DNA of 64,000 bases, taken from NCBI GenBank assembly GCA_023379265.1, contig JAMCUI010000009.1, positions 167,802 through 231,801 of the forward strand, written 5' to 3'. A program made the position numbers and the translations under genes. Below are positions 3,213 to 35,158 of this stretch, in pieces; the stretch's first letter is position 1, and every line of letters starts with the position of its first letter. The notes beneath the pieces are model-generated. The model ran no database searches. It was not told the DNA's origin and worked only from the letters and a program-made list of their open reading frames with translations. The stretch is from Patescibacteria group bacterium (GTDB lineage Bacteria > Patescibacteriota > Microgenomatia > 2-02-FULL-39-11).

Positions 3213-3677
3213 ATGGATAAAAATCAAAAAGTAGTTCTGACGAGAGAAGGTCTTTCTGAGCTGAAAAAAGAATACGACGAACTCGTAAACGTCAAAAGGC
3301 CTGATCTTGTAGCAAGGCTTGCCACAGCCCGCGGTCAGGGAGATCTATCCGAAAACAGTGAATATGCCGCTGCACGTCAGGATTTGGCCTTTATTGATGG
3401 CCGCATTTCCGAACTTGAAGCGGTTATTGCTGAGGCAAAAGTAGTTGCCAGCCATCCTAAGAGCAAGATAGATGTTGGTTGTAAAGTGACTTTACATGTT
3501 AATGGCAAGAAGGAAGCATTTTTGATAGTCGGAGAATGGGAAGCAGATCCGGCACAGAAAAAAATCTCACATTCTTCACCTTTGGGCAAAGCCCTTTTGG
3601 GCAAAAAGGTAGGAGAAATGGTGGAAGTGGAAGCGCCTGTGGGTAAGTTGAAATACAAAATATTAAACATTGAATAA
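3213..3677 (+). CDS. greA: transcription elongation factor GreA (paralog 2)
   Basis: VVLTREGLSELKKEYDELVNVKRPDLVARLATARGQGDLSENSEYAAARQ. Full-length 154 aa with a GreA C-terminal domain. Confidence 0.85.
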   Translation: MDKNQKVVLTREGLSELKKEYDELVNVKRPDLVARLATARGQGDLSENSEYAAARQDLAFIDGRISELEAVIAEAKVVASHPKSKIDVGCKVTLHVNGKKEAFLIVGEWEADPAQKKISHSSPLGKALLGKKVGEMVEVEAPVGKLKYKILNIE

Positions 3678-3776: not shown

Positions 3777-5993
3777 ATGCCGACAATTGACGATTTACGA
3801 CAAATCAGGATAGACAAACTGGAAAAGCTCAGGAAAATGGGGATAGATCCGTATCCGGCCAAAGTAGAAAGAGGGGAAAGTTTGGCTATTGCACGCGATA
3901 GGCTTGAAAAGCCGGTAAAAGTCATAGGTAGAATTGTGGCCATGCGTGGACATGGCGGGCTGATTTTTGCAGATATCGTTGACGAAAGCGGGAAAATTCA
4001 AGTAGCCTGTAAGGAAGATCAATTGGAGGAAAAAGCCTTTGAGCTGCTGCCCCTTCTAGATATAGGCGATTTTATTGCTGTCCAGGGGAACGTGGGAAAA
4101 ACTGTAGCAGGAGAGGTTACTGTTTTTGCTGATAGATTGCAGATTATTACTAAATCTCTAAACCCGTTGCCTGATAGGTGGTACGGTCTTAAAGACATTG
4201 AAGAGCGTTACCGCAAGCGTTATGTGGACATGCTTTTGAACCGGGAGGTAAAAGATCGGCTGACAAAGCGAAGCCAGGTAATTGGAGCGATGAGGGAATT
4301 TCTTATAAAAAGAGGTTTTATTGAGGTTGAAACTCCCACATTGCAGCCTATTTATGGTGGAGGGTTTGCCAGGCCTTTTGTCACACATCACAACGTTTTG
4401 GATACTGATTTTTATCTTCGTATTTCTGATGAGATGTACTTAAAAAGGCTTATCGTAGGAGGTTTTGAGAAGGTTTTTGAAATTACAAAGGTTTTCCGCA
4501 ACGAAGGAATCGATCACGACCATAATCCGGAATTTACCATGTTTGAGGCACAGATTGCTTATGAAGATTACAGTTTTGGGATGGATATTACAGAGGAAAT
4601 TATTGAATACACTGCCAAAAAAATCCTAGGTAAAACCGCTTTTTCCTATCAGGGTACGGCAATGGAGGTGGCGCGTCCCTGGCAAAGATACAAACTTACT
4701 GAAGCAATTAGTCGTTTTACCGGTTTTGATCCGATGAAATGGCAGACATTGAGTGAAGCCCGTGAGGCTGTAAGACAAATGGATATTCCGGAAGATAAGC
4801 TTTCTCTTATGAAACAGGTGAGAACTTTGGGAGAAATGATAGCCTTTGCTTTTGAACACGCAGTGGAGAAAAAACTTATGCAGCCCACAATTATTTATGA
4901 TTTTCCAATTGAGGTTTCTCCACTTGCAAAAAAATGCGACGATCCCCGGTTTACCCAACGGTTTGAAGTGTTTGCATTTGGTTCTGAATTGGGAAATAAC
5001 TATACAGAACTCAATGACCCTTTGGATCTCTTAAAAAGATTTATAGAAGAGAAAAAAAGGGAAGCGGCAGGTTTTGCTGAAGCCCAACAGACAGATTACG
5101 ATTATATTGAGGCTATAGAGCACGGGTTTCCTCCAACGTGCGGTTTAGGTATTGGTATTGATCGATTAGTGATGCTTTTGACTGACGCCAAAAACATAAA
5201 AGAAGTAATACCTTTTCCGACACTGCGTCCACAGCAGCCAAGCGGACACGAAAAAAAGGTTGAAGCGCAGGATAGTCAGGTTAAGATAGATAATGTCAAT
5301 ATTATTTCCAAACCTGATTATTTCAGCATTTCAGCTGATTTGGGGAAAGCATTTCCTTCATTGTCTGTTGGTATTGCTCTTATTAAAGGTGTAAATATAA
5401 AAAAAAGCGATCCGGCACTTGAACTTGAGAAAGAAAATTTCCTGGAACTCTTAACGGGATTGACTAATGACGTGATTAGCGGTTATAAGGAAGTATTAAG
5501 CTATAGGAAGCTCTATAAGGCTATGGGTGTCGATTGGCATTCCCGCCGTCCTTCTCCTGAAGCGCTTTTGCGCCGTGTATCCCAGGGGAAAGGACTTTAT
5601 ACAGTAAATACTTGTGTTGACGCTTATAACTTGGTTGTAATGAAGAACAGGGTCTCGGTTGGCGCTTTTGACGCAAAAAACGTACACTTTCCTACCGTAT
5701 TGCGTTTTGCTGCAGGGGGAGATGAGATACTTCTTTTAGGAGATAAGGAGCCAACAAAATATACTGTTTGGGAGTTAGCCTATTATGACAAGTTGGGCGG
5801 GTTTAATATAGATTTCAATTATCGTGATGCACAAAGGACTATGGTGACAGAGGAAACAAAAGACATATGGATAAATGTTGATGGTATATTTGATATAATA
5901 CCTTCTCAAGTTGAAGAAAGCCTTAAGTTATCTGTAAATTTAATAAGGAAATACTGCGGCGGCGATGTCGAATTTATGGGTGTCGTAGTATAG
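3777..5993 (+). CDS. lysS: lysyl-tRNA synthetase (class II) fused to a C-terminal PheT-type B3/4 domain
   Basis: The N-terminal ~500 aa carry the anticodon-binding OB fold and class II motifs (FRNEGIDHDHNPEFTMFEA; GFPPTCGLGIGIDRLVMLL). Residues ~520-738 (VNTCVDAYNLVVMKNRVSVGAFDAKNV...VLRFAAGGDEILLLGDKEP...) match the B3/4 domain of Phe-tRNA synthetase beta. Confidence 0.85.
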   Translation: MPTIDDLRQIRIDKLEKLRKMGIDPYPAKVERGESLAIARDRLEKPVKVIGRIVAMRGHGGLIFADIVDESGKIQVACKEDQLEEKAFELLPLLDIGDFIAVQGNVGKTVAGEVTVFADRLQIITKSLNPLPDRWYGLKDIEERYRKRYVDMLLNREVKDRLTKRSQVIGAMREFLIKRGFIEVETPTLQPIYGGGFARPFVTHHNVLDTDFYLRISDEMYLKRLIVGGFEKVFEITKVFRNEGIDHDHNPEFTMFEAQIAYEDYSFGMDITEEIIEYTAKKILGKTAFSYQGTAMEVARPWQRYKLTEAISRFTGFDPMKWQTLSEAREAVRQMDIPEDKLSLMKQVRTLGEMIAFAFEHAVEKKLMQPTIIYDFPIEVSPLAKKCDDPRFTQRFEVFAFGSELGNNYTELNDPLDLLKRFIEEKKREAAGFAEAQQTDYDYIEAIEHGFPPTCGLGIGIDRLVMLLTDAKNIKEVIPFPTLRPQQPSGHEKKVEAQDSQVKIDNVNIISKPDYFSISADLGKAFPSLSVGIALIKGVNIKKSDPALELEKENFLELLTGLTNDVISGYKEVLSYRKLYKAMGVDWHSRRPSPEALLRRVSQGKGLYTVNTCVDAYNLVVMKNRVSVGAFDAKNVHFPTVLRFAAGGDEILLLGDKEPTKYTVWELAYYDKLGGFNIDFNYRDAQRTMVTEETKDIWINVDGIFDIIPSQVEESLKLSVNLIRKYCGGDVEFMGVVV

Positions 5994-6002
5994 TGACAAA
6001 TT

Positions 6003-6566
6003 ATGAATATTGAAGAAGCCAGAAAACTATTACATCTTCATATGCAAAATACCAATCTTCGTAGGCACTGTTATTCGGTGGCTGCTGTCATGAGAGCATT
6101 GGCTTGCCATTTTAATGAAGATGAGGACGTGTGGGAAGTGGTAGGTCTTTTACATGATGGGGATTATGAAGAGGTAAAAAAAGACCCTTCGCAACATACA
6201 CTTCTGATGCATAAATGGCTTGTTGAGGCAGGAGAGAAGGATGAAAGGATATTTTCTGCTATCCTTTCCCATAATTTTGTCCATACCGGAAAAAATCCGC
6301 CCAAAAATAAATTAGAATGGTCCCTTTACTGTTGTGATGAGTTGACAGGACTTATTGTAGCTGTTGCATTGGTCCGTCCTGACAAAAAACTATCCTCAGT
6401 GACGGTTGAATCAGTTCAGAAAAAGTGGGGGAAAAGCGAGTTTGCCGCTGGTGTTGATCGTAACCAGATAGCAAAATGTGAGGAAATATTGGGTATAAAG
6501 TTGCCTGAATTTATCGGAATTGCCCTTTCTTCCATGCAGTCAATTTCCTCAGAGCTGGGGTTGTAG
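6003..6566 (+). CDS. HD-domain phosphohydrolase
   Basis: H...(RRHCYSVAAVM) and LLHDGDY HD motif. 187 aa. Confidence 0.6.
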   Translation: MNIEEARKLLHLHMQNTNLRRHCYSVAAVMRALACHFNEDEDVWEVVGLLHDGDYEEVKKDPSQHTLLMHKWLVEAGEKDERIFSAILSHNFVHTGKNPPKNKLEWSLYCCDELTGLIVAVALVRPDKKLSSVTVESVQKKWGKSEFAAGVDRNQIAKCEEILGIKLPEFIGIALSSMQSISSELGL

Positions 6567-23859: not shown

Positions 23860-25347
23860 ATGTCTGCGAAAATTCCCTGGTTGATTCTTGGCGCATCGAT
23901 TTTGATTTTAGGATTCTATTTTCTTTTTTTTGGGAAAATACAGATAGCTGGTGACATAGTGGAATACTACGGAATGACAGTGTCGATTTTGAATCACGGG
24001 GACGTTTCATTGCGAAATAGCGATAAGACGGATATTGAAAAATATTTGCCTGCAGCTTACTTTTCCGACCCCCAATATTATATGGTCGGGGCCAATCAAG
24101 TAAGATATCCGGTCCATTTCCCTTTTTATGCGTATCTTCTCATTCCATCAAGAATAATCCTTTCATTAATGGGAGCAAATCCGATGTTATCATTTCCATT
24201 GACAAATATTTTAATATTGGCATCAGTACTAATTTACGCCTTTAGAAAGTATATCAAAGAACCGGATAAAAGACTTTTTTTGTTGTTTCTTGTGTATTTC
24301 TCCCCATTAATTTTTTTCCTTGGTTGGCCGGGCCCGGAAATTTATTACACAGGATTGATTTTTATTAGTATATTGGCTTTCATTTCAGGTGAATATTTTC
24401 TTTCCGCGTTTTTCTCCGCTCTCGCTTCATGGCAGAGCCAGCCGCTAATCGTGGTTTCCTTTATAACGGTCATTTATATGGTGATCGATACTCTTGTTAA
24501 ATTTAAGAAGAATAGAGTAGCAGAGAAAAACTCCAACAATTATTTATTGGTTATTAAATCATTATCAATATTGTTGCTGATGTTTATTCCCTACGTATTT
24601 AGTTATTTCCAATTTGGACTTTTGACTCCGTGGACAAATATTCGCAATGGCTGGACGGAAATAAACGGATTTGGTTTACAGAATATCAGCCTGAAAAAAC
24701 TTTTTGAACAGTTTTTCGATTTGAATATGGGACTTTTTTGGTATGCGCCGTTTACTCTTGTGATCGGATTTTATTATTTGATTAAAAGGATTATTGTTGA
24801 CAATAAAGCCGTATTTCTAAGCGCGATCTATCTGGTAACCGCCTTTTTTTATCAGACTAATCCTGCGTGGAATTATGGTACTGCAGGTTACGGCCCTACA
24901 AGACATATTGTTTACATTCTTCCCTTATTTATAGTTCTTGCTATTGATTTTCTTCATGAGAAAAAACTGAGTATTATTACTTCTATCATATTTTTTATCC
25001 TGTTGTGTCTGCAAACTATATCCATGAATATGAACGGGTGGGTAAATCCGGATTTCAGAAATTCGCTCAGGAATAATTACTACGCAATCTATATTTTGGA
25101 CAATTTTCCTTCCTTATATAATCCAACCCCAGAGATATTTGTTGATAGGACTAATCAGACTGATCTGGATCACCCGACATCCGGGTTTTATAAATACAAA
25201 GGGTATTGTACAAAAGCATATGTTTTATCGGACGAACTTAATAATCTGGAAAATCAGTGCGGTTATATTCCAACTGAACAAAAAAAATCGATTATCGCTG
25301 GGTTGAAAACGTTAAATCCTTATCAAGGAATCTATGTCAATTATTAA
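23860..25347 (+). CDS. polytopic integral membrane protein (possible GT-C-like / polymerase-like)
   Basis: More than 10 TM helices, no soluble domain. Assignment from context only. Confidence 0.5.
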   Translation: MSAKIPWLILGASILILGFYFLFFGKIQIAGDIVEYYGMTVSILNHGDVSLRNSDKTDIEKYLPAAYFSDPQYYMVGANQVRYPVHFPFYAYLLIPSRIILSLMGANPMLSFPLTNILILASVLIYAFRKYIKEPDKRLFLLFLVYFSPLIFFLGWPGPEIYYTGLIFISILAFISGEYFLSAFFSALASWQSQPLIVVSFITVIYMVIDTLVKFKKNRVAEKNSNNYLLVIKSLSILLLMFIPYVFSYFQFGLLTPWTNIRNGWTEINGFGLQNISLKKLFEQFFDLNMGLFWYAPFTLVIGFYYLIKRIIVDNKAVFLSAIYLVTAFFYQTNPAWNYGTAGYGPTRHIVYILPLFIVLAIDFLHEKKLSIITSIIFFILLCLQTISMNMNGWVNPDFRNSLRNNYYAIYILDNFPSLYNPTPEIFVDRTNQTDLDHPTSGFYKYKGYCTKAYVLSDELNNLENQCGYIPTEQKKSIIAGLKTLNPYQGIYVNY

Positions 25348-28300
25348 GAATAAACATTTTTATTATTTATTCTTCCTCATATTAGCTGTTGTTGTCATTT
25401 GTTTTACCAACTATAAGCCGGGAACATGGTTGACTGGTTGGGATAATCTGCATCCTGAGTTTGATTTCCCCATGAATATAAACAGATCGATTTTTGCCGT
25501 CTGGCAGGAATATCAGGGATTGGGCCTTCTTGGCGGGATGGGTCATGCTGCCGACCTGCCAAGACAATTATTATTGTCAATTTTTTCAATAATTATTCCG
25601 GTAAGCTTGTTAAGATATTTTTATCAATATCTGATGCTTATTGTCGGCGTATTGGGAATCTATAAACTTGTAATATTCTTTCTTAGCGATAGATTAAAAG
25701 ATTCGTCAGTAAGAAAGATAGCATTACTCTGCAGTTTATTCTATCTGTTAAATCTGGGAACCATACAGAATTTTTTCTTTCCTTTTGAACCTTTCAGTAC
25801 TTTTTGGGGATTCTTTCCATGGGAGTTATGGGGATTATTTAATTATTTGAATAAACCAAACAAAAAAGCTTTTATATGGTTTGTCTTTATAAATATACTA
25901 GCGATTCCTCAAGCGTACGTGGAAACAATATTTCTAGTATATTTACTTTTTATTTCTATAATATTTCTGATTTATTTCTTCACAAATAAAAGCTTTTTGA
26001 CTTTTAAGAAAATTTTTGTGATCTCCGGAACTATTTTCCTTATTAATTCCTTCTGGATTCTTCCCAATGCTTACTTTATTTTTACCAGTGTTTCAGTAAC
26101 TCAGAATGCCATGAATAATAAAATGAACAATGACAGATTTGTTGAAATGAATCTTAAGAGAGGGCATCCAGGAGATTTGATATATCTGGAAGGATTCAAT
26201 CTGGATACTCTGGATGATACTCAAACTCCCGGAAAGCCTGTTTATATGATGCAGGTATGGAGGGATTATTATTCACTTTTACCGATTAGAATAGAAGGAA
26301 TAATATTTTTCATTCTTACTCTTTTGGGGATTTTGAAGGGGAGGAGGAAAAGTAAATATATTGCCGGAATGTCGATTTTGAGTGTAGTAGTGTTATTAAG
26401 CGATACTCCAATAATTTCAACAATAAATTTTCTATTACGGCAAATTCCACTCATTAACCAGGTAATCCGTAACCCCTTTACTAAATTTATCGTTCCCACA
26501 GCTGTAATCTATGCTGTTCTTTTTGGATTTGGTTTGTCGTTTATTTTTGAACACTTTGAAAAAAAAAGAGAAAGAGCAATAAAAGTAATATTCCTTTTAC
26601 TTACATTAATGGTATTGATATACGGATTACCGGCGTTTACCGGACATCTGTTTTCTGACAGATTGAGGATTAAAATTCCTGATTATTATTTTCAAGTATT
26701 TAATTACTTTAAGACTAAAGATCCCAACGCGAGAATAATGAATCTTCCACAAGATACTTATTGGGGATGGGGTTCCTATAAATGGGGTCTTACTGGTTCA
26801 GGATTTTTATGGTACGGTATTGGACAACCTGTTATGGATAGAGCTTTTGATGTTTGGAGTAATTACCTTGAGCAGTATTATTGGGAGTTAATTTATGATT
26901 TGAGGATGAGAGATCAGAATCTTTTCAATAAAACGGTAAAAAAATACGACATCACTTATGTATTATATGATGAGAGTTATATTCCTTCCGATTACAATAG
27001 CTTAAAATGGATAATTCAGCAGAAAGAGTTGTTGGATAATAATCCGTTATTTACTAAAGTAGCAGATTTCGGCACTGTAAGCATATACAAAATTAACGAT
27101 AATTCTGGCTCCGGTTCGATGAGTCTATTAAATAGTGTTCCACAAACTATAAAATACGAAAATTTCAGTAATACTGATGATTTGTTTAACTCTGTCGGAA
27201 ATTATTATGAAGAGAATAATAAACCGGAACCTGATTATGTTTATCCTTTTGAATCATTATTTACAAATCGATTCCAGAATGAAGTAAAATTTTCGGTTTC
27301 AGACACAGCCAATGATATCAGCTTTACGAAAGAAATACCAAAAGGTAATTATAATTTGAATATTCCCTCTTTAATAAATGATGAAAAAATTTTACCTTTT
27401 GCTATTTACGCGAAGATCGAAGGTGGTAGCTTAATTTTAAGCTTTCAACTGAAAAGTCCGGAAGTGCACGTAGATAATGTGGTAGTTAATAATAATCCGA
27501 TCTCCAAGCAATTTGCAATTCCTATTCCGGTACAATTTAGTGGGAACTATTATTTACTTAGTATAAATAATAGGGACTTTTTAAGCATAGTAAACCCTTC
27601 CGATAATTACGAGTATATTGGTGATGCATATTTAATTAACAGTCTAATTGGTAATTCCGTATCTCTATATTCGGGAAGCAATCCTGCGATTCAGGATTTG
27701 GAACCGAAAAAATTTAACGCCGCAGTTGACTGTAATTCGGGAAAGTCAACCAAGTCCAGCTTGACTGAGGTATCGGGAAACATACTGAAAATATTTGCAC
27801 AAGGTAGTTCTACATGTGTACCATACAGTTCTCCATTGATCAACTTGCCAACCAGAGGATTGGACAGGATAAGTTTTGTTTATAAATCCAAATATGATGA
27901 ATTTCCAAAATTCTGTTTTAGGAATTTATCTTCAGGTAATTGTATAAACCAATCAAATAATAACAAAATAAGCTTTTCCACAAATTATCTCAGGTATAAT
28001 GAGTATTTTGAGGATAAAGGCGGGATAAATAATATAAATACTTTTTCGTTTATTCTTGAGCCGGGGTATGACAAATCTTTGTCTGGAGAAAAAAACATAT
28101 CTTATCAGAATATTGAAGTATTCTCCTACCCTTTTATCGATTCATTTGACTTTGACACAACCTCTTTAAGTCATAATTCTGTAACAGAGTTTAAATTTAA
28201 CATTAATAAAAGTTCCTTAATCGAAGTTAATGTACCTAAAATATCTGGAAGTTATGAGTGGAGTAACCTTATAAACGATAACCAGTATAAAAGGAACCCT

Positions 28301-29203
28301 CAAGAATATAATCCTGTTGAAGGGGATTTCTATATGTCAGAACATATTTATCCGGACAATGATAAAAGTCTACTATTATATTCTAAAAATTATTTGTTAA
28401 ATTATTTGTTTGAACAAAATAATTTACCTTCTGACGTAGGATATTTATTATCAATGAGTACTAAGTTAGTTAACGGGTTTCCGCTAACTCTGAAGACTAC
28501 TACTGTAAAAAACGATACCACTTATGTGTATACTCTTATGTCGAAAAGTACAAGTTTCGACACCTCAAGATATATTTTGCCACCTATTTATCAGTTTGAT
28601 GATGGAATTAGAGTACAATTTACAGATAGCTCTTTCAACCAGATACCATCGGTAAATGAGATAAAAGATATTTCATTAGATCCAATACCTTATAAATACC
28701 TGACGAAAATTAGTTTGACCTCTTCTACCTCAGAAAAGAATAATGAAAATAAAATAGTTCTACCATTCACTAAGGATAATATTTCAGATTATTCTGTTAA
28801 AATTAATTCAAATACAGTAGAAAGAAACACGATCTTAGCTTTTTCACAGAGTTATGATAGCGGTTGGAAAGCATATTCAATAAACGAAGAACAAATATCA
28901 AACAGCAATTTGTTGACAGAATTATTTCCTTTCTGGTTTGGTACAGAACTAAAAGACCATGTGATGGTGAATAACTGGGAAAACGGTTGGAAGCTTGAAC
29001 AACCAACTAACAACAAACAACTAATAAACATAATTGTCGTTTATCTGCCGCAATATCTGGAGTACGTTGGATTTATTCTGTTGGTGATAGGAATATTATC
29101 CGTAATATTTTATCCAGGAGATAAGCAACTGGACGGTAAAAGAGCAGAAAGCCAAGAACAAAGTAGGAATAACCCGGAAATGTCTGACACAAAACTATTG
29201 TAA
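25334..29203 (+). CDS. giant YfhO-like GT-C family membrane protein (1289 aa) with a ~750-aa extracytoplasmic insertion
   Basis: N-terminal GWDNLHPEF...VWQEYQGLGLLGGMGHAADLP parallels the YfhO block GGDLLTQFYFW...FWSPYNFSGMPFLAHP of the neighbouring gene. The C-terminus YDSGWKAY...VNNWENGWK plus a final TM resembles the YfhO C-terminus. Confidence 0.65.
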   Translation: MSIIKNKHFYYLFFLILAVVVICFTNYKPGTWLTGWDNLHPEFDFPMNINRSIFAVWQEYQGLGLLGGMGHAADLPRQLLLSIFSIIIPVSLLRYFYQYLMLIVGVLGIYKLVIFFLSDRLKDSSVRKIALLCSLFYLLNLGTIQNFFFPFEPFSTFWGFFPWELWGLFNYLNKPNKKAFIWFVFINILAIPQAYVETIFLVYLLFISIIFLIYFFTNKSFLTFKKIFVISGTIFLINSFWILPNAYFIFTSVSVTQNAMNNKMNNDRFVEMNLKRGHPGDLIYLEGFNLDTLDDTQTPGKPVYMMQVWRDYYSLLPIRIEGIIFFILTLLGILKGRRKSKYIAGMSILSVVVLLSDTPIISTINFLLRQIPLINQVIRNPFTKFIVPTAVIYAVLFGFGLSFIFEHFEKKRERAIKVIFLLLTLMVLIYGLPAFTGHLFSDRLRIKIPDYYFQVFNYFKTKDPNARIMNLPQDTYWGWGSYKWGLTGSGFLWYGIGQPVMDRAFDVWSNYLEQYYWELIYDLRMRDQNLFNKTVKKYDITYVLYDESYIPSDYNSLKWIIQQKELLDNNPLFTKVADFGTVSIYKINDNSGSGSMSLLNSVPQTIKYENFSNTDDLFNSVGNYYEENNKPEPDYVYPFESLFTNRFQNEVKFSVSDTANDISFTKEIPKGNYNLNIPSLINDEKILPFAIYAKIEGGSLILSFQLKSPEVHVDNVVVNNNPISKQFAIPIPVQFSGNYYLLSINNRDFLSIVNPSDNYEYIGDAYLINSLIGNSVSLYSGSNPAIQDLEPKKFNAAVDCNSGKSTKSSLTEVSGNILKIFAQGSSTCVPYSSPLINLPTRGLDRISFVYKSKYDEFPKFCFRNLSSGNCINQSNNNKISFSTNYLRYNEYFEDKGGINNINTFSFILEPGYDKSLSGEKNISYQNIEVFSYPFIDSFDFDTTSLSHNSVTEFKFNINKSSLIEVNVPKISGSYEWSNLINDNQYKRNPQEYNPVEGDFYMSEHIYPDNDKSLLLYSKNYLLNYLFEQNNLPSDVGYLLSMSTKLVNGFPLTLKTTTVKNDTTYVYTLMSKSTSFDTSRYILPPIYQFDDGIRVQFTDSSFNQIPSVNEIKDISLDPIPYKYLTKISLTSSTSEKNNENKIVLPFTKDNISDYSVKINSNTVERNTILAFSQSYDSGWKAYSINEEQISNSNLLTELFPFWFGTELKDHVMVNNWENGWKLEQPTNNKQLINIIVVYLPQYLEYVGFILLVIGILSVIFYPGDKQLDGKRAESQEQSRNNPEMSDTKLL

Positions 29204-29303
29204 TTTTTACTTTCTAGTAATTAAGCTATTTTATTTGTCCTCTGGCGACTATTATAATATTCACTTTTTTCTATCTTTCTCCTATACTTAGACCATAGAA
29301 AAT

Positions 29304-30677
29304 ATGCTGCGTAAGGCTGTAACCACAATACTTTTTATAATTATCGTTGCGGCGATTTCAGTAAATGTTACTCCTTACGTCCGGCAACTGCTTTTACAGT
29401 CCGGGGCAATACAAGAAGAAGTGCTTATTGCCGGAACTGGATCAATGTATCCGACTTTCCCCAAAGGAAACGGCAAGACGGACGTAGTACGCGCTCAAGA
29501 AACGGTTGCCTGGCCAAAGATGAGAATTTATCCCTCAGGGATAAATATCTTCGGTTTTCACTTTTTTTCCTACAAACTCCAACATGGGGATATCGTGGAA
29601 TTCGAGAATAAAAAGACAGACCAGATTTCAAAGGAGAAATACGGGGATACCGCCGGATTTGTAAAAAGGATTATCGCTTTACCCGGTGATACCATTGATT
29701 TGCGTGACGGTTTTGTTTACTTAAACGGTGAGAGGATTGACGAGCCTTATACAGCCAAACCCAGATCCACTTATGGCGGCAATTTTTTAGCCGACTGTAC
29801 CAACCTGAAAATTCCGGTTGGCAGCGTGTTTGTCATGGGTGACAATAGAAAAGCGAGCTTGGATTCAAGGTATGAATTGGGATTGGTGGATATTTCCGAT
29901 ATCCATTTTGTCTTGCCATGGGATGATCAGGAGACTTACCATAAACTTTGGCGGGATACTGAAAATGATGCGCTTTTAGCAAATACTCCGACACTGGATG
30001 CTTCAGAGTTTATAAAACTTCTTGATGAAAAAAGACAAACAGCAAACGGTACATCACCTTTGAGATACAATGTCCTTTTGACAAATTCCAGCAAGATTAG
30101 GGGGGATGCCATGATAAATACTGATGATTTTTCGACAGAAGCGACAAGAAGTGGCATGACTTTGGCAAAATCTATAAAAGAATCCGGTTATGAGAATATC
30201 ATTTTTGCCGAAGTTTATACCCGTGGTTATTATGATGCGCAAGAATTGGTAGACAATTTTCTTGAGTTTCCGGATACGAAGAAGATTCTATTTTCTGCAG
30301 AATATCAGGATATTGGTATCTCGCCCGTTTTAGGAGAAATAAATAGTTGTCCCTCACAGGTGATTGTGGTTCATCTTGGAGGATATGTTCCTCCCAGCTA
30401 TACACAGAAGGAAATTGGCAGTTGGCAATCGCTTATCGAGAATATTGAAAAAGTATTGCCGTCGTGGGAAAGCGCAAAGGGTGCAGAAGGAATAAGCCAG
30501 TCAAAACTGGATCAGTTATTAAATATATTAAATACCAGACTCAGTAATGCTAAAATAATATATGCAAGGATGCAGGCTGATCAATGGTTGACAGACGCCC
30601 AGAAAAAAATGGTATCCGATGATCCGCAACTGGCAGCGCAGGCAAATGATTTAATAGATCAGTTAAATAAGAGATGA
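29304..30677 (+). CDS. lepB: signal peptidase I (S26A, LepB) with a ~250-aa C-terminal extension
   Basis: GTGSMYPTF (Ser box), VKRIIALPGDTI (Lys box), and GDNRKASLDSRY (box E). Residues ~210-457 are an additional domain of unknown function. Confidence 0.8.
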   Translation: MLRKAVTTILFIIIVAAISVNVTPYVRQLLLQSGAIQEEVLIAGTGSMYPTFPKGNGKTDVVRAQETVAWPKMRIYPSGINIFGFHFFSYKLQHGDIVEFENKKTDQISKEKYGDTAGFVKRIIALPGDTIDLRDGFVYLNGERIDEPYTAKPRSTYGGNFLADCTNLKIPVGSVFVMGDNRKASLDSRYELGLVDISDIHFVLPWDDQETYHKLWRDTENDALLANTPTLDASEFIKLLDEKRQTANGTSPLRYNVLLTNSSKIRGDAMINTDDFSTEATRSGMTLAKSIKESGYENIIFAEVYTRGYYDAQELVDNFLEFPDTKKILFSAEYQDIGISPVLGEINSCPSQVIVVHLGGYVPPSYTQKEIGSWQSLIENIEKVLPSWESAKGAEGISQSKLDQLLNILNTRLSNAKIIYARMQADQWLTDAQKKMVSDDPQLAAQANDLIDQLNKR

Positions 30678-32881
30678 AGAAGAACACTTTTATTTTCAGA
30701 CTTTTGCCACTTCTATTCCTCTTGCTGCTAATTCTTTTACAATTCGGACAAACTTTAATCCCATCTGAAGGAAAAATGATATACGGTGGAGATCTTCTTA
30801 CCCAGTTTTATTTCTGGAAAGGGTATTTAGCTTCAAACGTTAGGAGCGGCGTTATTCCTTTTTGGAGTCCTTACAATTTTTCAGGCATGCCATTCTTAGC
30901 CCATCCGTCTACAGCTGCATTTTATCCCCTGACTTTGCTATTTGTTCTCTTGCCTCTAAATATAGCCTTTTCAATTAATTATGCCATTCATATTTTAATC
31001 GCCGGTTTGGGAATGTATTTACTATTGCGTTCGTATAAAACAGACGAATTATCCGCGCTTGCAGCTTCTGCCGCGTTTATGCTATCCGGGTTTATTGGAG
31101 CAAGGGTTTACGCTGGGCATGTGGATATTATCTCTACAGCTGTTTGGATTCCATGGGTGTTATGGTCGACTCGTCAACTACTCTCAGAACCGTCAAAGAA
31201 GAATTTCCTTCTTTTGGTTGCTAGTACCTCTTTGGAGATATTAGCATCGTATACTGCCATAGTGCTTTTTACTGTTGAGGTGGTAACAGCATATTTGGCT
31301 TTTACTTTTGTTATTGATTTATGGTTATATCGCCGGATTAAGATAAGTAAATTTTTACTCGTTTTCCTGTCGTTTACTATTGCAGCCGCCTTGACGGCAA
31401 TCCAATGGTATCCTACGTTGCAGTTTATCAATCTATCAATAAGAGGTGGAGGATTGCCTTATTCTATGGTTTCATGGGGATCATTTCCTCCATCAGCTTT
31501 GAAGTTATTTGTAGACCCTTACAATGTATCGGAGTTGGCCAAATTTCCTTACACTTTTGCCGGATTTACTCTACCGGACTTTTTTGATTATTATCCCGGC
31601 CGGATAATGCTCCTAATCGCAGTTGTATTTATTATCTTAAAATTGTTGAAATTATTTACAGGAAATATATTTGGGAAAAAGATTCTCAGCGTTAACCATG
31701 ATTTCTGGTTTTACCTTTTTATGATATGTATCTTTATATGGTTGGCTACTGGTGGGGAGTTGAAATATAGCCTGCATCATTTATTTTATACTCTAATTCC
31801 CTTTTACAGAAATATACGTATTCCTACACAGCATCTTATCATGGTTTCATTTCTCTTACCGCTCATATTTGGTATGGCAGTTTCTTCAGTGAGAAGTAAA
31901 CTTTTTAGCTGGTTGATTATGATAATGATTGTTATGGAGCTTCTACCATTCAGCCGGCAATTTTTCATAAATACTAATATTCCCGAGATTAAATATGATC
32001 AGAATCTGGTAAAAACACTTAAATCCACTACTCAAATAACACGTTTCCTGCCAGATTTCGGAGTGATAAGTCCGACAGAAAAATTATTAAATTTCAATTC
32101 GGCCGAAGAATACGCAATCCAATCAACTACAGGTTATGACCCGATGATTTTGAGAAATTATTTCGATTTTATAGATATTGCCAATGGTAACAGAAGTTCG
32201 TCCCAAGAGTATTATAATGTGGAAGTTCCTCCTCTATCTCCATATTCTCCCGCTCTTGATTTTCTCAATATAGGATTTATTATGACTGAAGCGGACCGTA
32301 ACTGGCAGGAAAGAGGCCGCCCGATAAAATTTTCCACCCTTCTATCCTCAGACAAATATATACTATACAAGAATAATAATGTTTTACCTCGTTTTTTTCT
32401 TGTATCACGATTTGTGGCTTTATCAAATACAGCGGCAGTCAAAGAAAAACTTCTTACTGCCCAACCGGATGATTTCCGCAGAAATGTATATATAACAAAA
32501 GATGAACAAAGCAAATTGCCGCAAAAGGCAGTGTATGACTGCGGTAATTATCCGAATGCTGGAATCTATGATGATGTGTATACTCCAGGCAAAATAGTTT
32601 TAACTATGGAAACAAATTGTAGCGGAATTCTAGCTACCAGTGAAATCTACTATCCCGGTTGGAAGGCAACCATTGACGGTAGAAAAGTGCCGATTTTGTT
32701 AATCAATACTGCTTTCAGAGCAATTTATTTGCCAGCAGGTAAACATACGGTCATATTTTATTACCAGCCTGATATTTACCTTTTCGGGGGGAAACTATCA
32801 CTTTTAGGATGTGCGGCGATTGTTCTAATCCTGGCTGGTTGGAGTCTCATACCAATTAGTCTTAGAAAAACAAGAAAATAG
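30674..32881 (+). CDS. YfhO family GT-C glycosyltransferase
   Basis: N-terminus GGDLLTQFYFWKGYL...FWSPYNFSGMPFLAHPSTAAFYP, and a C-terminal YYPGWKATIDGRKVPILLINTAFRAIYLPAGKHTVIFYYQP characteristic of YfhO. Confidence 0.8.
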   Translation: MKKNTFIFRLLPLLFLLLLILLQFGQTLIPSEGKMIYGGDLLTQFYFWKGYLASNVRSGVIPFWSPYNFSGMPFLAHPSTAAFYPLTLLFVLLPLNIAFSINYAIHILIAGLGMYLLLRSYKTDELSALAASAAFMLSGFIGARVYAGHVDIISTAVWIPWVLWSTRQLLSEPSKKNFLLLVASTSLEILASYTAIVLFTVEVVTAYLAFTFVIDLWLYRRIKISKFLLVFLSFTIAAALTAIQWYPTLQFINLSIRGGGLPYSMVSWGSFPPSALKLFVDPYNVSELAKFPYTFAGFTLPDFFDYYPGRIMLLIAVVFIILKLLKLFTGNIFGKKILSVNHDFWFYLFMICIFIWLATGGELKYSLHHLFYTLIPFYRNIRIPTQHLIMVSFLLPLIFGMAVSSVRSKLFSWLIMIMIVMELLPFSRQFFINTNIPEIKYDQNLVKTLKSTTQITRFLPDFGVISPTEKLLNFNSAEEYAIQSTTGYDPMILRNYFDFIDIANGNRSSSQEYYNVEVPPLSPYSPALDFLNIGFIMTEADRNWQERGRPIKFSTLLSSDKYILYKNNNVLPRFFLVSRFVALSNTAAVKEKLLTAQPDDFRRNVYITKDEQSKLPQKAVYDCGNYPNAGIYDDVYTPGKIVLTMETNCSGILATSEIYYPGWKATIDGRKVPILLINTAFRAIYLPAGKHTVIFYYQPDIYLFGGKLSLLGCAAIVLILAGWSLIPISLRKTRK

Positions 32882-33561
32882 GAAGGACCTACTCGAAAAA
32901 TTTTGAATTTGGATAGCCCCATAAGTCTTGTCCTTTCTTTCCAACTTACAGGAATCTGTCCGATAGAAGCACCTGCAATAACAGGATAATATCCCAACTC
33001 AGCATTTATAGCAAAGTTTGGGCTGCGTAAAATTGGATAAAGCTTGTCAACAAGGTTTTTTCTATAAAGTTTGAAATTATTAGTCAAATCAGAGTGGGGA
33101 ATACCGATAATCAGTTGAGATAGGAAGTGGAAGGACCGATTGGCAATCAGTTTTATGAATGGATAGTTTTTGAGAGAACCGCGGGTCATAAACCTGGAGC
33201 CCGTAACTCCATCAAATCCATCGATCTTTTTGATGAAATTGGCAATATCAGGAACGTTTGCCAAAAAATCACAATCCATAAAAAGGACATATTCCGATTT
33301 CGGAGAAAGGTTTTTTATTCCCTCTTTTATTGCTAGACCAACTCCTGGATTTCGTATTCTTCTGACTATTTTTATCTTTTTATATTGCTTCTTTAGCTCC
33401 CACGCACTTAAATATGTACCGTCTGTTGAGTTATCGTCCACTACGATAATTTCGAGTATGTGCTGATGGTATTTTTTGACTATAAGAGGAATAATTCTGG
33501 CTAAGTTATTTTCTTCATTCCTGGCAGGGATTATTATGGATAGGTTTTTGAGCATTTTCAA
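32776..33561 (-). CDS. GT2 polyprenyl-phosphate sugar synthase (DPM1/GtrB/CsbB-like)
   Basis: LSIIIPARNEENNL...IIVVDDNSTDGT GT-A motifs. Its 3' end overlaps the YfhO 3' end by ~106 bp, tail to tail. Confidence 0.8.
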   Translation of the reverse strand: MKMLKNLSIIIPARNEENNLARIIPLIVKKYHQHILEIIVVDDNSTDGTYLSAWELKKQYKKIKIVRRIRNPGVGLAIKEGIKNLSPKSEYVLFMDCDFLANVPDIANFIKKIDGFDGVTGSRFMTRGSLKNYPFIKLIANRSFHFLSQLIIGIPHSDLTNNFKLYRKNLVDKLYPILRSPNFAINAELGYYPVIAGASIGQIPVSWKERTRLMGLSKFKIFRVGPSYFLVFLRLIGMRLQPARIRTIAAHPKSDSFPPKR

Positions 33562-33583
33562 ATATCAATATTTTATCGGTAAA

Positions 33584-35158
33584 TCAGTTTTTGTAAATAG
33601 AGACAAGGGGGACATCTTGAACAGACAGGGTGTAAATTGGTTTATGAGTTTGGATATACGGATAAATCCCATACCATGAGAAGAATGATTCACGGTTTAA
33701 TACGACGGTATAGTCGCTTTGGGAATACAAATAACTCGGGGCATCGGCCATATTGGCGGTGTTAAGTTTTGAGATGAGGTCGTCTCGGAGATAAAGCTTG
33801 GCTATATCAGGAGCCATCGGAATTATGATTCGAGCGTTTTTAGGCGCGTTTTTATTGATGTAGCCGAGTGCATGTTTGTATGCCGAGGCCCAAAATTCGA
33901 TATCAAATTTATGTGAGGCTTTTTGTATTCCACCTATTAATTCTCCGAAATAACTCGTTTCATATGGGTGATATGTGATTATCTGATAGGAAAGATAAGC
34001 AGAGTAGATCAGGGATAGGCATATAAATATAGACATCTTATTTTTTATTGCGATTTTGTTTTTAAGCTTATTGGTAACAAAATAAAAAAAAGAGTAAACA
34101 CCCAAACCAGTGATGGCTGCAAAAGGGAAAATGACTTCCATAAAATGTCTTATATCATCAATGACAATCATATGAGGTTTGAAATATCGGGAGACAGGTA
34201 TGGCAAACCACAGAAGTATAAAAATTTTTTCTTCAAACAGGATTTTATTCCAAGAAAGTATAGCGAGAAGACCAATCAGAAAAAAAATAAGCATCACTGT
34301 CGGAGTGGTGACAGCTATAATACCGAATGGGTAATGCCAGGGGACATTCTGTCCCGAGAAAACGATATCACTAAAGTATAGAATGGGCATATTCATGGTG
34401 GAAGTGGTATAGGAGTGGCTTGCTTCAATCAATCGGGTAACGGGGTGAGTCCAGAAAGGAGCCCAGATTATGAAGGAAAAAACAGGCGAAAGAATAAAGT
34501 AAAGAATTACCATTTTTATTTTGGGTTTAAGGCTGAATTTACCATAGTATCTATCTCTGACAAAGACGCAAAAAAGAAAGGAAAAAGCGATTATGGGTAT
34601 AAAAATTGCATTGACTTTGCTGTTAAACGAAAGCGCTACGGTAAAAGTTGAGAAAAACAATGTTTTCCAGTTTGTTTTTTTATAGAAAAGCCAAAAGCTA
34701 AATATGGCAAGGGTGAAAAATACCGCTTGAGGAATGTCTTTCATATTATTATGAAGATGGCCAAAATAACGAGGAAGAAGAGCCAAACTGATTACAGAGA
34801 AAAAAGCTGTTTGCCAGTTTAGAAGCTTTTTAACCATGAAATATAACAATCCGATACCAAGGGATCCTAATATAACTGAATACAAGTTGTAGGCACTGTC
34901 CCAAGGCAGTAAATGAAAAAGCCGTGAGAAAATTTCATACGAAACAACAGGGAAAGTATCAGACAAGGGAGGGGAGGGACCCATAACAAAGCCGGGATCA
35001 GTCTGTGGAAGATGTAAATGCCACAAACCGGCGTTAAAATGGTAAGTATAATCCCAAGTGACACCGTAGTGATTTATCACCATGAGGTTAACTGCAAGAT
35101 ATAAGAGAGTAACGGTTATCCCTAAGTAAAAAGGAAATTGATTTTTTATTTTGGTCAT
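33584..35158 (-). CDS. GT-C family glycosyltransferase (ArnT/PMT-like, GT39/GT83)
   Basis: Polytopic. First-loop motif NHYGVTWDYTYHFNAG resembles the DE/DxY block of ArnT/PMT. 524 aa. Confidence 0.6.
   Translation of the reverse strand: MTKIKNQFPFYLGITVTLLYLAVNLMVINHYGVTWDYTYHFNAGLWHLHLPQTDPGFVMGPSPPLSDTFPVVSYEIFSRLFHLLPWDSAYNLYSVILGSLGIGLLYFMVKKLLNWQTAFFSVISLALLPRYFGHLHNNMKDIPQAVFFTLAIFSFWLFYKKTNWKTLFFSTFTVALSFNSKVNAIFIPIIAFSFLFCVFVRDRYYGKFSLKPKIKMVILYFILSPVFSFIIWAPFWTHPVTRLIEASHSYTTSTMNMPILYFSDIVFSGQNVPWHYPFGIIAVTTPTVMLIFFLIGLLAILSWNKILFEEKIFILLWFAIPVSRYFKPHMIVIDDIRHFMEVIFPFAAITGLGVYSFFYFVTNKLKNKIAIKNKMSIFICLSLIYSAYLSYQIITYHPYETSYFGELIGGIQKASHKFDIEFWASAYKHALGYINKNAPKNARIIIPMAPDIAKLYLRDDLISKLNTANMADAPSYLYSQSDYTVVLNRESFFSWYGIYPYIQTHKPIYTLSVQDVPLVSIYKN

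Follow-up and report, generated by a model that had tools for sequence, protein, structure and literature searches.

CtdA, a free-standing B3/4 protein described from S. enterica and P. canavaninivorans, is a canavanyl-tRNA(Arg) deacylase (PDB 9mkl and 9f7e; PMC10018355, PMC12449066) that possesses a specific helical insert (PMC12449066). Its residues Y104 and N105 are catalytically important, with a proposed role in placing the ester and the water for hydrolysis, and the N105A and G116H/W variants are inactive (bioRxiv 10.1101/2024.11.30.626143, PMC12449066). As regards lysyl-tRNA synthetases (LysRS), a 2020 review describes two routes that maintain fidelity, namely pre-transfer editing in the class II active site (homocysteine, homoserine, and ornithine cyclisation) and trans-editing of Ser/Thr-tRNA(Lys) by ProXp-ST1/ST2, and knows of no separate LysRS editing domain (PMC7373986), in agreement with an earlier note on the DNA analyzed here, which held that LysRS normally has none. 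This DNA, a 64-kb stretch of contig JAMCUI010000009.1 from a Patescibacteria group bacterium (hereafter, the window), contains a lysS gene in which a class II LysRS (LysRS2) continues in frame into a C-terminal B3/4 module that is of the CtdA type, and not of the type found in PheT, the beta subunit of phenylalanyl-tRNA synthetase (PheRS), as the earlier note had proposed.

The gene is a single uninterrupted open reading frame (ORF) that begins with ATG and encodes 738 residues followed by a stop codon (Table 1). Its synthetase body belongs to LysRS2, since it combines the OB domain with a class II D/K/N core (tRNA-synt_2, PF00152, residues 141-483, E-value (E) 6e-85 in Pfam) that carries motifs 2 and 3 (FRNEG and GLGIGIDRLVMLL), and matches the NCBIfam equivalog lysS_bact (TIGR00499) over residues 6-486 with 535.8 bits, above the cutoff of 427.6; the window protein also exceeds the cutoff of NF001756 (583.5 vs. 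468). By this full-length equivalog homology and these intact motifs, the gene would be the class II LysRS of the organism, responsible for lysine activation and tRNA(Lys) charging, and no second LysRS was found in the 64-kb window. The body stops at ...FPTLRP485 and 253 in-frame residues lie beyond it, with B3/4 homology starting at KPDYFSI (residue 512), past a stretch of 26 residues whose length and sequence vary among fusions in a junction alignment of class I and class II forms. In a Pfam scan of the whole protein, B3_4 (PF03483) covers residues 576-708 (E 5.6e-19; 68.8 bits vs. a gathering score of 29.3), and the isolated C-terminal segment matches the same family with E 4.5e-20 and 72.4 bits. 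Thus, the in-frame C-terminal B3/4 domain claimed by the earlier note is present, and the peptides that it quoted, GFPPTCGLGIGIDRLVMLL for motif 3, VNTCVDAYNLVVMKNRVSVGAFDAKNV, and TKDIWINVDG, all occur in the translation.

Sequencing errors do occur around this gene, since in a related locus (L003) the class I LysRS is split into several ORFs, and an assembly or frameshift artefact joining lysS to a separate B3/4 gene could therefore be suspected. However, the errors in L003 break ORFs rather than join them, and the same 738-residue protein, 100% identical, was also predicted from an independent Logan assembly (run SRR10278331) and is listed at NCBI under the name "lysine--tRNA ligase [Patescibacteria group bacterium]" (P0121). 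Moreover, an ortholog (L005) with 92-94% identity has a matching architecture, so that a frameshift or misassembly, including the frameshift or stop that the earlier note had named as refuting the fusion, is excluded. Complete single-ORF fusions number 76 in species genomes (70 class I and 6 class II), and 11 class II fusions were found in close relatives; together with the independent assembly, they refute the artefact.

The assignment to a type relies on both sequence and predicted structure. Among PDB sequences, the best matches of the C-terminal 238 residues are free-standing CtdA proteins (9mkl, E 5e-4; 9f7e, E 0.011), whereas PheRS-beta reaches only E 1.6 in the same search. An AlphaFold2 (AF2) model of the module, built from an alignment of 34 sequences, has a predicted local distance difference test score (pLDDT) of 95.9, with low values confined to the first residues, and a predicted template modeling score (pTM) of 0.92. 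When this model is compared with the PDB by Foldseek, the two CtdA structures come first and are matched over their full length (template modeling score (TM) 0.78-0.82; E 1e-15 to 2.5e-17), the alignments spanning 233-237 columns against chains of 226-231 residues, and the B3/4 domain of PheRS-beta follows with TM ~0.6; both CtdA and more than 25 PheRS-beta chains receive a Foldseek probability of 1.00, which bears out the B3/4 fold that the earlier note had asked structure prediction to reveal. Given the Pfam (5.6e-19) and Foldseek (2.5e-17) E-values, the match is far beyond chance. The PheT-type assignment was dropped on account of the weak PDB sequence match, the lower TM, and a score of 16.9 for pheT_bact (TIGR00472), for which the cutoff is 402.65, and Pfam found none of the domains that accompany B3/4 in PheT (B1/B2, B5, and FDX-ACB) in the window protein. 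Since CtdA is the best match by sequence and by full-length superposition, the module can be regarded as CtdA type; the B3/4 family stated by the earlier note stands, and the PheT type does not.

With CtdA, the module shares a predicted topology of ~230 residues that includes the CtdA-specific helical insert, the V-D-x-Y-N motif containing Y104 and N105, an equivalent of G116, an acid at the position of E191, and a partner synthetase that deals with a basic amino acid. Nevertheless, CtdA is free-standing and acts in trans on tRNA(Arg), whereas the module is attached in cis to a synthetase, both in the window and in all 80 related loci examined, and this partner is LysRS instead of arginyl-tRNA synthetase (ArgRS). 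Moreover, sequence identity between both is only 16-20% and the pocket of the module is fixed in a state of its own (F in place of E118, N of C166, Y/F of W171, D of Q173, and N of I189). Like the B3/4 domain of PheT, the module belongs to PF03483 and occupies the place of a cis editing domain within a synthetase, and an Asn in the catalytic site is common to both; however, it bears the CtdA-type insert where PheT has PheT-specific helices, and it lacks the PheT domain context.

The CtdA residues were mapped by sequence alignment onto 84 modules, with a spacing that agrees with both CtdA sequences. The catalytic residues Y104, N105, and G116 correspond to Y617, N618, and G629 of the window protein, and none of the 84 modules deviates at any of these three positions, which are almost invariant in distant relatives as well. 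The specificity and pocket residues of CtdA (E118, C166, Q173 or E, I189, and E191) are replaced by F631, N677, D684, N700, and D702, which are invariant within the clade. Since these residues differ from those of CtdA and are fixed, a canavanine-specific function is unlikely. An acid is kept at the position of CtdA E191 (D702) and a second one appears at that of Q173 (D684), and these two acidic residues, placed in the pocket by the alignment, suggest a cationic substrate. All close modules fused to LysRS present the pocket signature F...N...Y/F-R-D...D, whereas CtdA-like modules located at the N-terminus of ArgRS (P0288, P0325, P0373, and P0369; 868-1124 residues, with two modules in P0288) retain the CtdA signature E...C...W-R-Q/E...E. 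The first CtdA paper knew of no editing domain in ArgRS, and a cis form of the canavanine/arginine system would be expected to have the appearance of these fusions. The fact that the pocket tracks the partner synthetase points to amino-acid recognition, and a partner-dependent pocket combined with a constant catalytic core is the pattern expected of an editing domain with retuned amino-acid specificity.

A two-way pocket code, with a lysine type and an arginine type, was also considered and holds only partly. In P0295 and P0301, a CtdA-like module lies at the N-terminus of LysRS2 in proteins of 764 residues, an independent fusion topology, and carries a third signature, closer to CtdA (D131, C177, W182, E184, and E202 in module numbering). 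P0295 (L092/L093 4001-6295) is present on several contigs, adjoins priA and cysS, and apparently lies outside the candidate phyla radiation (CPR).

The distribution of the module was followed at several scales. A search of 5.8 billion proteins returned 123 close relatives, the named ones from Gottesman-, Roizman-, and Levybacteria, and precomputed Pfam annotations assign these relatives class II LysRS (PF00152) or class I LysRS (PF01921, PF19269) domains. In a scan of one genome per GTDB species, 181 genomes encode a relative, and among the best 80, which were examined, the module is C-terminal on a LysRS ORF in all 80 loci, mostly from Microgenomates/CPR. The body is a class I LysRS (LysRS1, PF01921) in 74 of them, including 70 complete single ORFs of 683-959 residues (median 766), and a class II enzyme in the other 6 (L005, L007, L050, L072, L073, and L084). 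This survey of LysRS in relatives, proposed by the earlier note, thus went beyond what that note had envisaged, because most of the fusions involve class I LysRS. A free-standing copy of the same clade exists as well (P0037 in L004). An exhaustive search of 1.84 billion cluster representatives yielded 1,778 relatives with E of at most 0.001. The majority of them are free-standing and ~230 residues long, and the 45 closest are mostly fusions of 710-800 residues. Distant relatives, sampled with Pfam and NCBIfam, include LysRS1 fusions (P0291 and P0313, the latter from a cluster annotated as Anaerolineae lysine--tRNA ligase) and LysRS2 fusions (P0259 and P0248), in addition to LysRS2 followed by B3/4 and DUF2000 (P0247) and LysRS2 followed by tRNA_bind (PF01588), B3/4, and HD domains (P0256).

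The near-universal presence of the module in this lineage, on class I LysRS in 74 of 80 loci, would also suit a constitutive helper, such as a non-catalytic appendage that binds or retains tRNA in the manner of Trbp111/EMAPII-type domains or of the N-terminal extension of eukaryotic LysRS, and that raises the affinity for tRNA(Lys) or channels the product without hydrolysis. B3/4 domains do bind the tRNA acceptor end and bear the database label "DNA/RNA-binding domain of Phe-tRNA-synthetase-like", P0256 additionally contains a tRNA_bind domain, and the catalytic residue E118 of CtdA is a Phe in the module. Nevertheless, the residues for hydrolysis (Y-N and the G116 equivalent) and the pocket set are invariant in 84 of 84 modules, which binding to the RNA backbone would not require, the pocket signature shifts with the partner between ArgRS and LysRS, and sister LysRS2 enzymes function without the module, so that such an appendage seems fairly unlikely.

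The genomic position of the fusions provides further information. In the window, greA lies 90 nt upstream of lysS, an HD-domain gene begins 9 nt downstream, and secA follows. In many loci, greA is found 50-190 nt upstream of both class I and class II fusions, and class I fusions of Gottesmanbacteria (e.g., L008, L012, L013, L021, and L031) share the same slot, with greA 3-75 nt upstream and the HD gene 0-12 nt downstream; a plain LysRS2 (L085) and a LysRS2 fused to DUF2000 (L089) also occupy the greA-lysS-HD slot. In a neighbour-joining tree of 88 modules with 100 bootstraps, class II-fused modules appear at three places among class I-fused ones, and each of them, once its own class II group is set aside, has class I-fused modules from the same lineage as its nearest neighbours. 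The class II-fused modules are monophyletic in 0 of 100 bootstraps and the group of the window module joins the Levybacteria class II group in none; a single origin of the class II fusions was therefore dropped. Bodies from different class II groups share 36-44% identity and their modules 55-65%, while the window module is 70-71% identical to class I-fused modules of Gottesmanbacteria and module identity between lineages ranges overall from 55 to 71%. The module tree thus follows the organisms and not the synthetase class, which implies at least three swaps of the synthetase body under a module that was retained. The simplest reading of the neighbour-joining trees, from which the direction is taken, would be an ancestral LysRS1-B3/4 fusion in which class II enzymes took the place of the body on at least three occasions. 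The module appears, then, to be tied to tRNA(Lys) rather than to one enzyme, staying in the Microgenomates gene slot under either a class I or a class II body, and its retention while a non-homologous essential enzyme was replaced represents strong genetic evidence for action on the shared substrate, tRNA(Lys).

These observations also bear on whether the module could be a general trans-editing factor for a non-lysine substrate, e.g., canavanyl-tRNA(Arg), that became fused to lysS through gene neighbourhood and the genome compaction of CPR bacteria. The 3' end of lysS readily fuses to downstream genes, as among the 120 closest LysRS2 relatives 66 are plain, 32 are fused to HD, 11 to B3/4, and 10 to DUF2000, and free-standing copies of the same clade exist, such as P0037. 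However, the module is found on two non-homologous LysRS classes, at the C-terminus in these and at the N-terminus in an independent family, and has been kept through at least three body replacements; moreover, the CtdA specificity residues E118 and C166 are lost here and kept in ArgRS-fused modules, and the fusions reach Anaerolineae, whose genomes are not compacted. A fusion of this accidental kind is accordingly judged very unlikely. The earlier note had offered two explanations, an appended proofreading function or the capture of a free-standing B3/4 protein, and the evidence favors both.

Selection on the window gene was estimated against L005 by the ratio of nonsynonymous to synonymous substitution rates (dN/dS), which amounts to 0.052 in the module and 0.095 in the synthetase body. 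In the linker (residues 487-514) it is 0.92, a value that is imprecise because it covers 28 codons. By this measure, purifying selection acts more strongly on the module than on the synthetase body, and the pattern fits a constrained domain on a flexible tether.

The module is probably, though by no means certainly, a C-terminally tethered CtdA-type domain for post-transfer editing that would clear mischarged tRNA(Lys). In such a mechanism, the LysRS body would activate lysine and charge tRNA(Lys), occasionally attaching a near-cognate, probably cationic, non-lysine amino acid, and the tethered module would sample the aminoacylated CCA 3' end across the flexible linker of ~26 residues. Tyr617-Asn618 and Gly629 would position the ester bond and the water, as in CtdA and bacterial PheRS, to judge from their homology to CtdA residues mapped by mutation, and the invariant pocket (F631, N677, Y682, D684, N700, and D702) would, likewise by homology, admit the wrong side chain and reject lysine; hydrolysis of the ester would then release free tRNA(Lys). 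By analogy with canavanine and arginine, the most plausible, though speculative, candidate for the substrate would be a lysine antimetabolite such as thialysine, oxalysine, ornithine, or hydroxylysine.

Several points weigh against an editing function. The predicted deacylase activity of the module comes from homology, and the correspondence of the pocket residues comes from sequence alignment and not from model coordinates. Two of the four residues important in P. canavaninivorans CtdA differ in the module (E118 to F and E191 to D), and according to the CtdA authors a common catalytic mechanism across B3/4 domains is not established. In addition, some lineages at least can dispense with the module, since 66 of the 120 closest LysRS2 relatives are plain. 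The two LysRS classes reportedly differ in the analogues that they mischarge (Levengood et al. 2004), and a single common substrate is therefore not guaranteed.

The two acids D684 and D702, placed in the pocket by alignment, could bind lysine itself equally well, and CtdA weakly hydrolyses cognate Arg-tRNA. On these grounds, the module might act on cognate Lys-tRNA(Lys) or another lysine ester, either to regulate the pool or to hand lysine over to lipid or cell-wall aminoacylation, as in LysX (MprF-LysRS). LysRS fusions that divert Lys-tRNA do exist, and the LysX model recognises the window protein through its LysRS half, with a score of 501, below the cutoff of 742. The LysX of mycobacteria, which makes lysyl-lipids (PMC10580965), resembles the window protein in joining a class II LysRS body to an extra functional domain that uses Lys-tRNA; however, its partner is an N-terminal membrane lysyl-lipid synthase, whereas that of the window protein is a soluble C-terminal domain of hydrolase type, and no transferase domain or membrane segment is attached to the latter. 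Moreover, a cognate deacylase on the only visible LysRS would constitute a futile cycle, and the characterised members of the fold (PheRS B3/4 and CtdA) all discriminate against the cognate amino acid, which makes an action on lysine esters quite improbable.

An editing module of the kind favored here would serve the same end as the known fidelity routes of tRNA(Lys), keeping non-lysine amino acids off this tRNA, but by other means. Pre-transfer editing by LysRS2 needs no extra domain and has been described for class II only, and the ProXp-ST factors are free-standing proteins of the INS superfamily, unrelated to B3/4. In the literature searched, which left out most subscription-journal papers, no cis post-transfer editing domain was found on either LysRS class, and full-text searches of the same scope gave nothing relevant on B3/4 or CtdA paired with LysRS; the three CtdA papers and a 2026 paper on deacylase-guided discovery do not mention LysRS or its fusions. 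The sequences are already public as plain lysine--tRNA ligase, and their architecture and its implications appear to be undescribed in that literature. An even chance may be granted to the broader proposal that the module is the first domain dedicated to post-transfer editing to be known from a LysRS, within a clade of CtdA-like deacylases that is linked to lysine and strips a lysine look-alike (a natural antimetabolite or metabolic by-product) from tRNA(Lys), and that the tie of this domain is to the tRNA/amino-acid system and not to the enzyme, so that it was kept through at least three exchanges of LysRS class.

If so, the module would represent a new fidelity checkpoint for lysine codons, in the form of a cis deacylase-type domain on both LysRS classes and, considered with the ArgRS-fused relatives, CtdA-like B3/4 proteins would be a general proofreading family for basic amino acids, in which natural fusions would reveal the tRNA served by each uncharacterised clade. 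The fusions also offer a functional lead for the 1,778 CtdA-like B3/4 cluster representatives (E up to 0.001), a set in which characterisation has so far reached only the canavanine-specific clade. In addition, the pocket signature could steer the search for the lysine antimetabolite met by these bacteria, as in the deacylase-led discovery of biosynthetic pathways (PMC13149037).

Table 1. Position of lysS, its domains and predicted functional residues, and the adjacent genes in the window.
Feature	Position	Strand	Basis
Whole gene, class II LysRS fused to CtdA-like B3/4 module	3777..5993	+	One ORF; same protein in independent assembly and NCBI
N-terminal OB-fold anticodon-binding domain of LysRS2, residues 47-124	3915..4148	+	Pfam PF01336 (tRNA_anti-codon), E 1.1e-14
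Class II catalytic core (body to residue 485; motif 2 FRNEG, motif 3 GLGIGIDRLVMLL)	4197..5231	+	PF00152, lysS_bact, translation
Linker, residues 486-511 (QQPSGHEKKVEAQDSQVKIDNVNIIS)	5232..5309	+	Junction alignment of fusions of both LysRS classes; dN/dS
CtdA-like B3/4 module, residues 512-738, predicted aminoacyl-tRNA deacylase domain	5310..5990	+	PF03483, AF2, Foldseek, dN/dS
Y617-N618, corresponding to CtdA Y104-N105	5625..5630	+	Invariant in 84/84 modules, nearly so across wider family
G629-A630-F631; G629 corresponding to CtdA G116, F631 in place of CtdA E118	5661..5669	+	Residue mapping, translation
Pocket stretch N677...Y682-R683-D684...N700-V-D702, corresponding to CtdA C166, W171, R172, Q173, I189, E191	5805..5882	+	Residue mapping
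greA, syntenic mark of the conserved lysS slot	3213..3677	+	Pfam GreA_GreB_N and GreA_GreB
HD-domain protein gene, 187 residues, 9 nt downstream of lysS stop	6003..6566	+	Pfam PF01966, E 4e-6; synteny

In many relatives, the HD gene lies 0-15 nt downstream of a LysRS gene of either class (also in L085, 5467-6033). Among the 120 closest relatives, 32 have its product joined in frame to LysRS2 (e.g., L087 4001-6106), and a 959-residue ORF (L063 2417-5296) apparently joins it to LysRS1-B3/4. The HD protein of the window gives weak NCBIfam matches to the HD part of NadD-YqeK-type proteins and no significant match to PDB sequences. YqeK is a diadenosine tetraphosphate (Ap4A) hydrolase and LysRS is a major source of Ap4A, and the HD neighbour may be a partner of LysRS with predicted Ap4A hydrolase activity.

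DUF2000 (PF09391), which does not occur in the window, is an alternative C-terminal appendage of sister LysRS2 enzymes (10 of 120; e.g., P0146 at L089 4001-5929), and is also found with B3/4 alone (P0095 and P0097), after B3/4 in P0247, and in P0171. Its sole relative among PDB sequences is Atu0240 (2gax, E 0.19), a single-sequence AF2 model of it has pLDDT 54, and the literature searched does not mention it. The structure 2gax is classified with the peptidyl-tRNA hydrolase II fold, and DUF2000 may accordingly be a second appendage of ester-hydrolase type.

Upstream of lysS there are two tandem greA paralogs, 45% identical (2249-2710 and 3213-3677, both on the + strand), of which only the second is the conserved syntenic neighbour; a tRNA-Glu(CTC) gene lies between them on the opposite strand (2707-2781, -) and is overlapped by the stop region of the first greA. 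This tRNA-Glu was the only match given by an Rfam scan for regulatory RNA near lysS. In the JGI contig of L003 (3788-6113), the LysRS1-B3/4 gene is frameshifted into at least five ORFs and greA is truncated too; this breakage is probably a sequencing error and not a pseudogene, and calls for caution with many "partial" matches among close relatives.

In a relative from Gottesmanbacteria (L087/L088 1-3306), genes with Aconitase_C, Iso_dh, AA_kinase, and Aminotran_3 domains directly precede the LysRS2-HD fusion; this set resembles an alpha-aminoadipate/LysW-type pathway for lysine (or ornithine), and could be a link between lysine/ornithine metabolism and the accessories of LysRS. In P0080, B3_4 is paired with Aminotran_3. 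Finally, a block of low GC content (0.33-0.35 vs. ~0.40 elsewhere) extends over positions 23860-35158 of the window and encodes envelope and glycosylation functions, with genes for a GT4 glycosyltransferase, a signal peptidase S26 fusion, and YfhO-like and PMT_2 membrane proteins, along with two large ORFs that have no Pfam match (23860-25347, 495 residues, and 25334-29203, 1289 residues).

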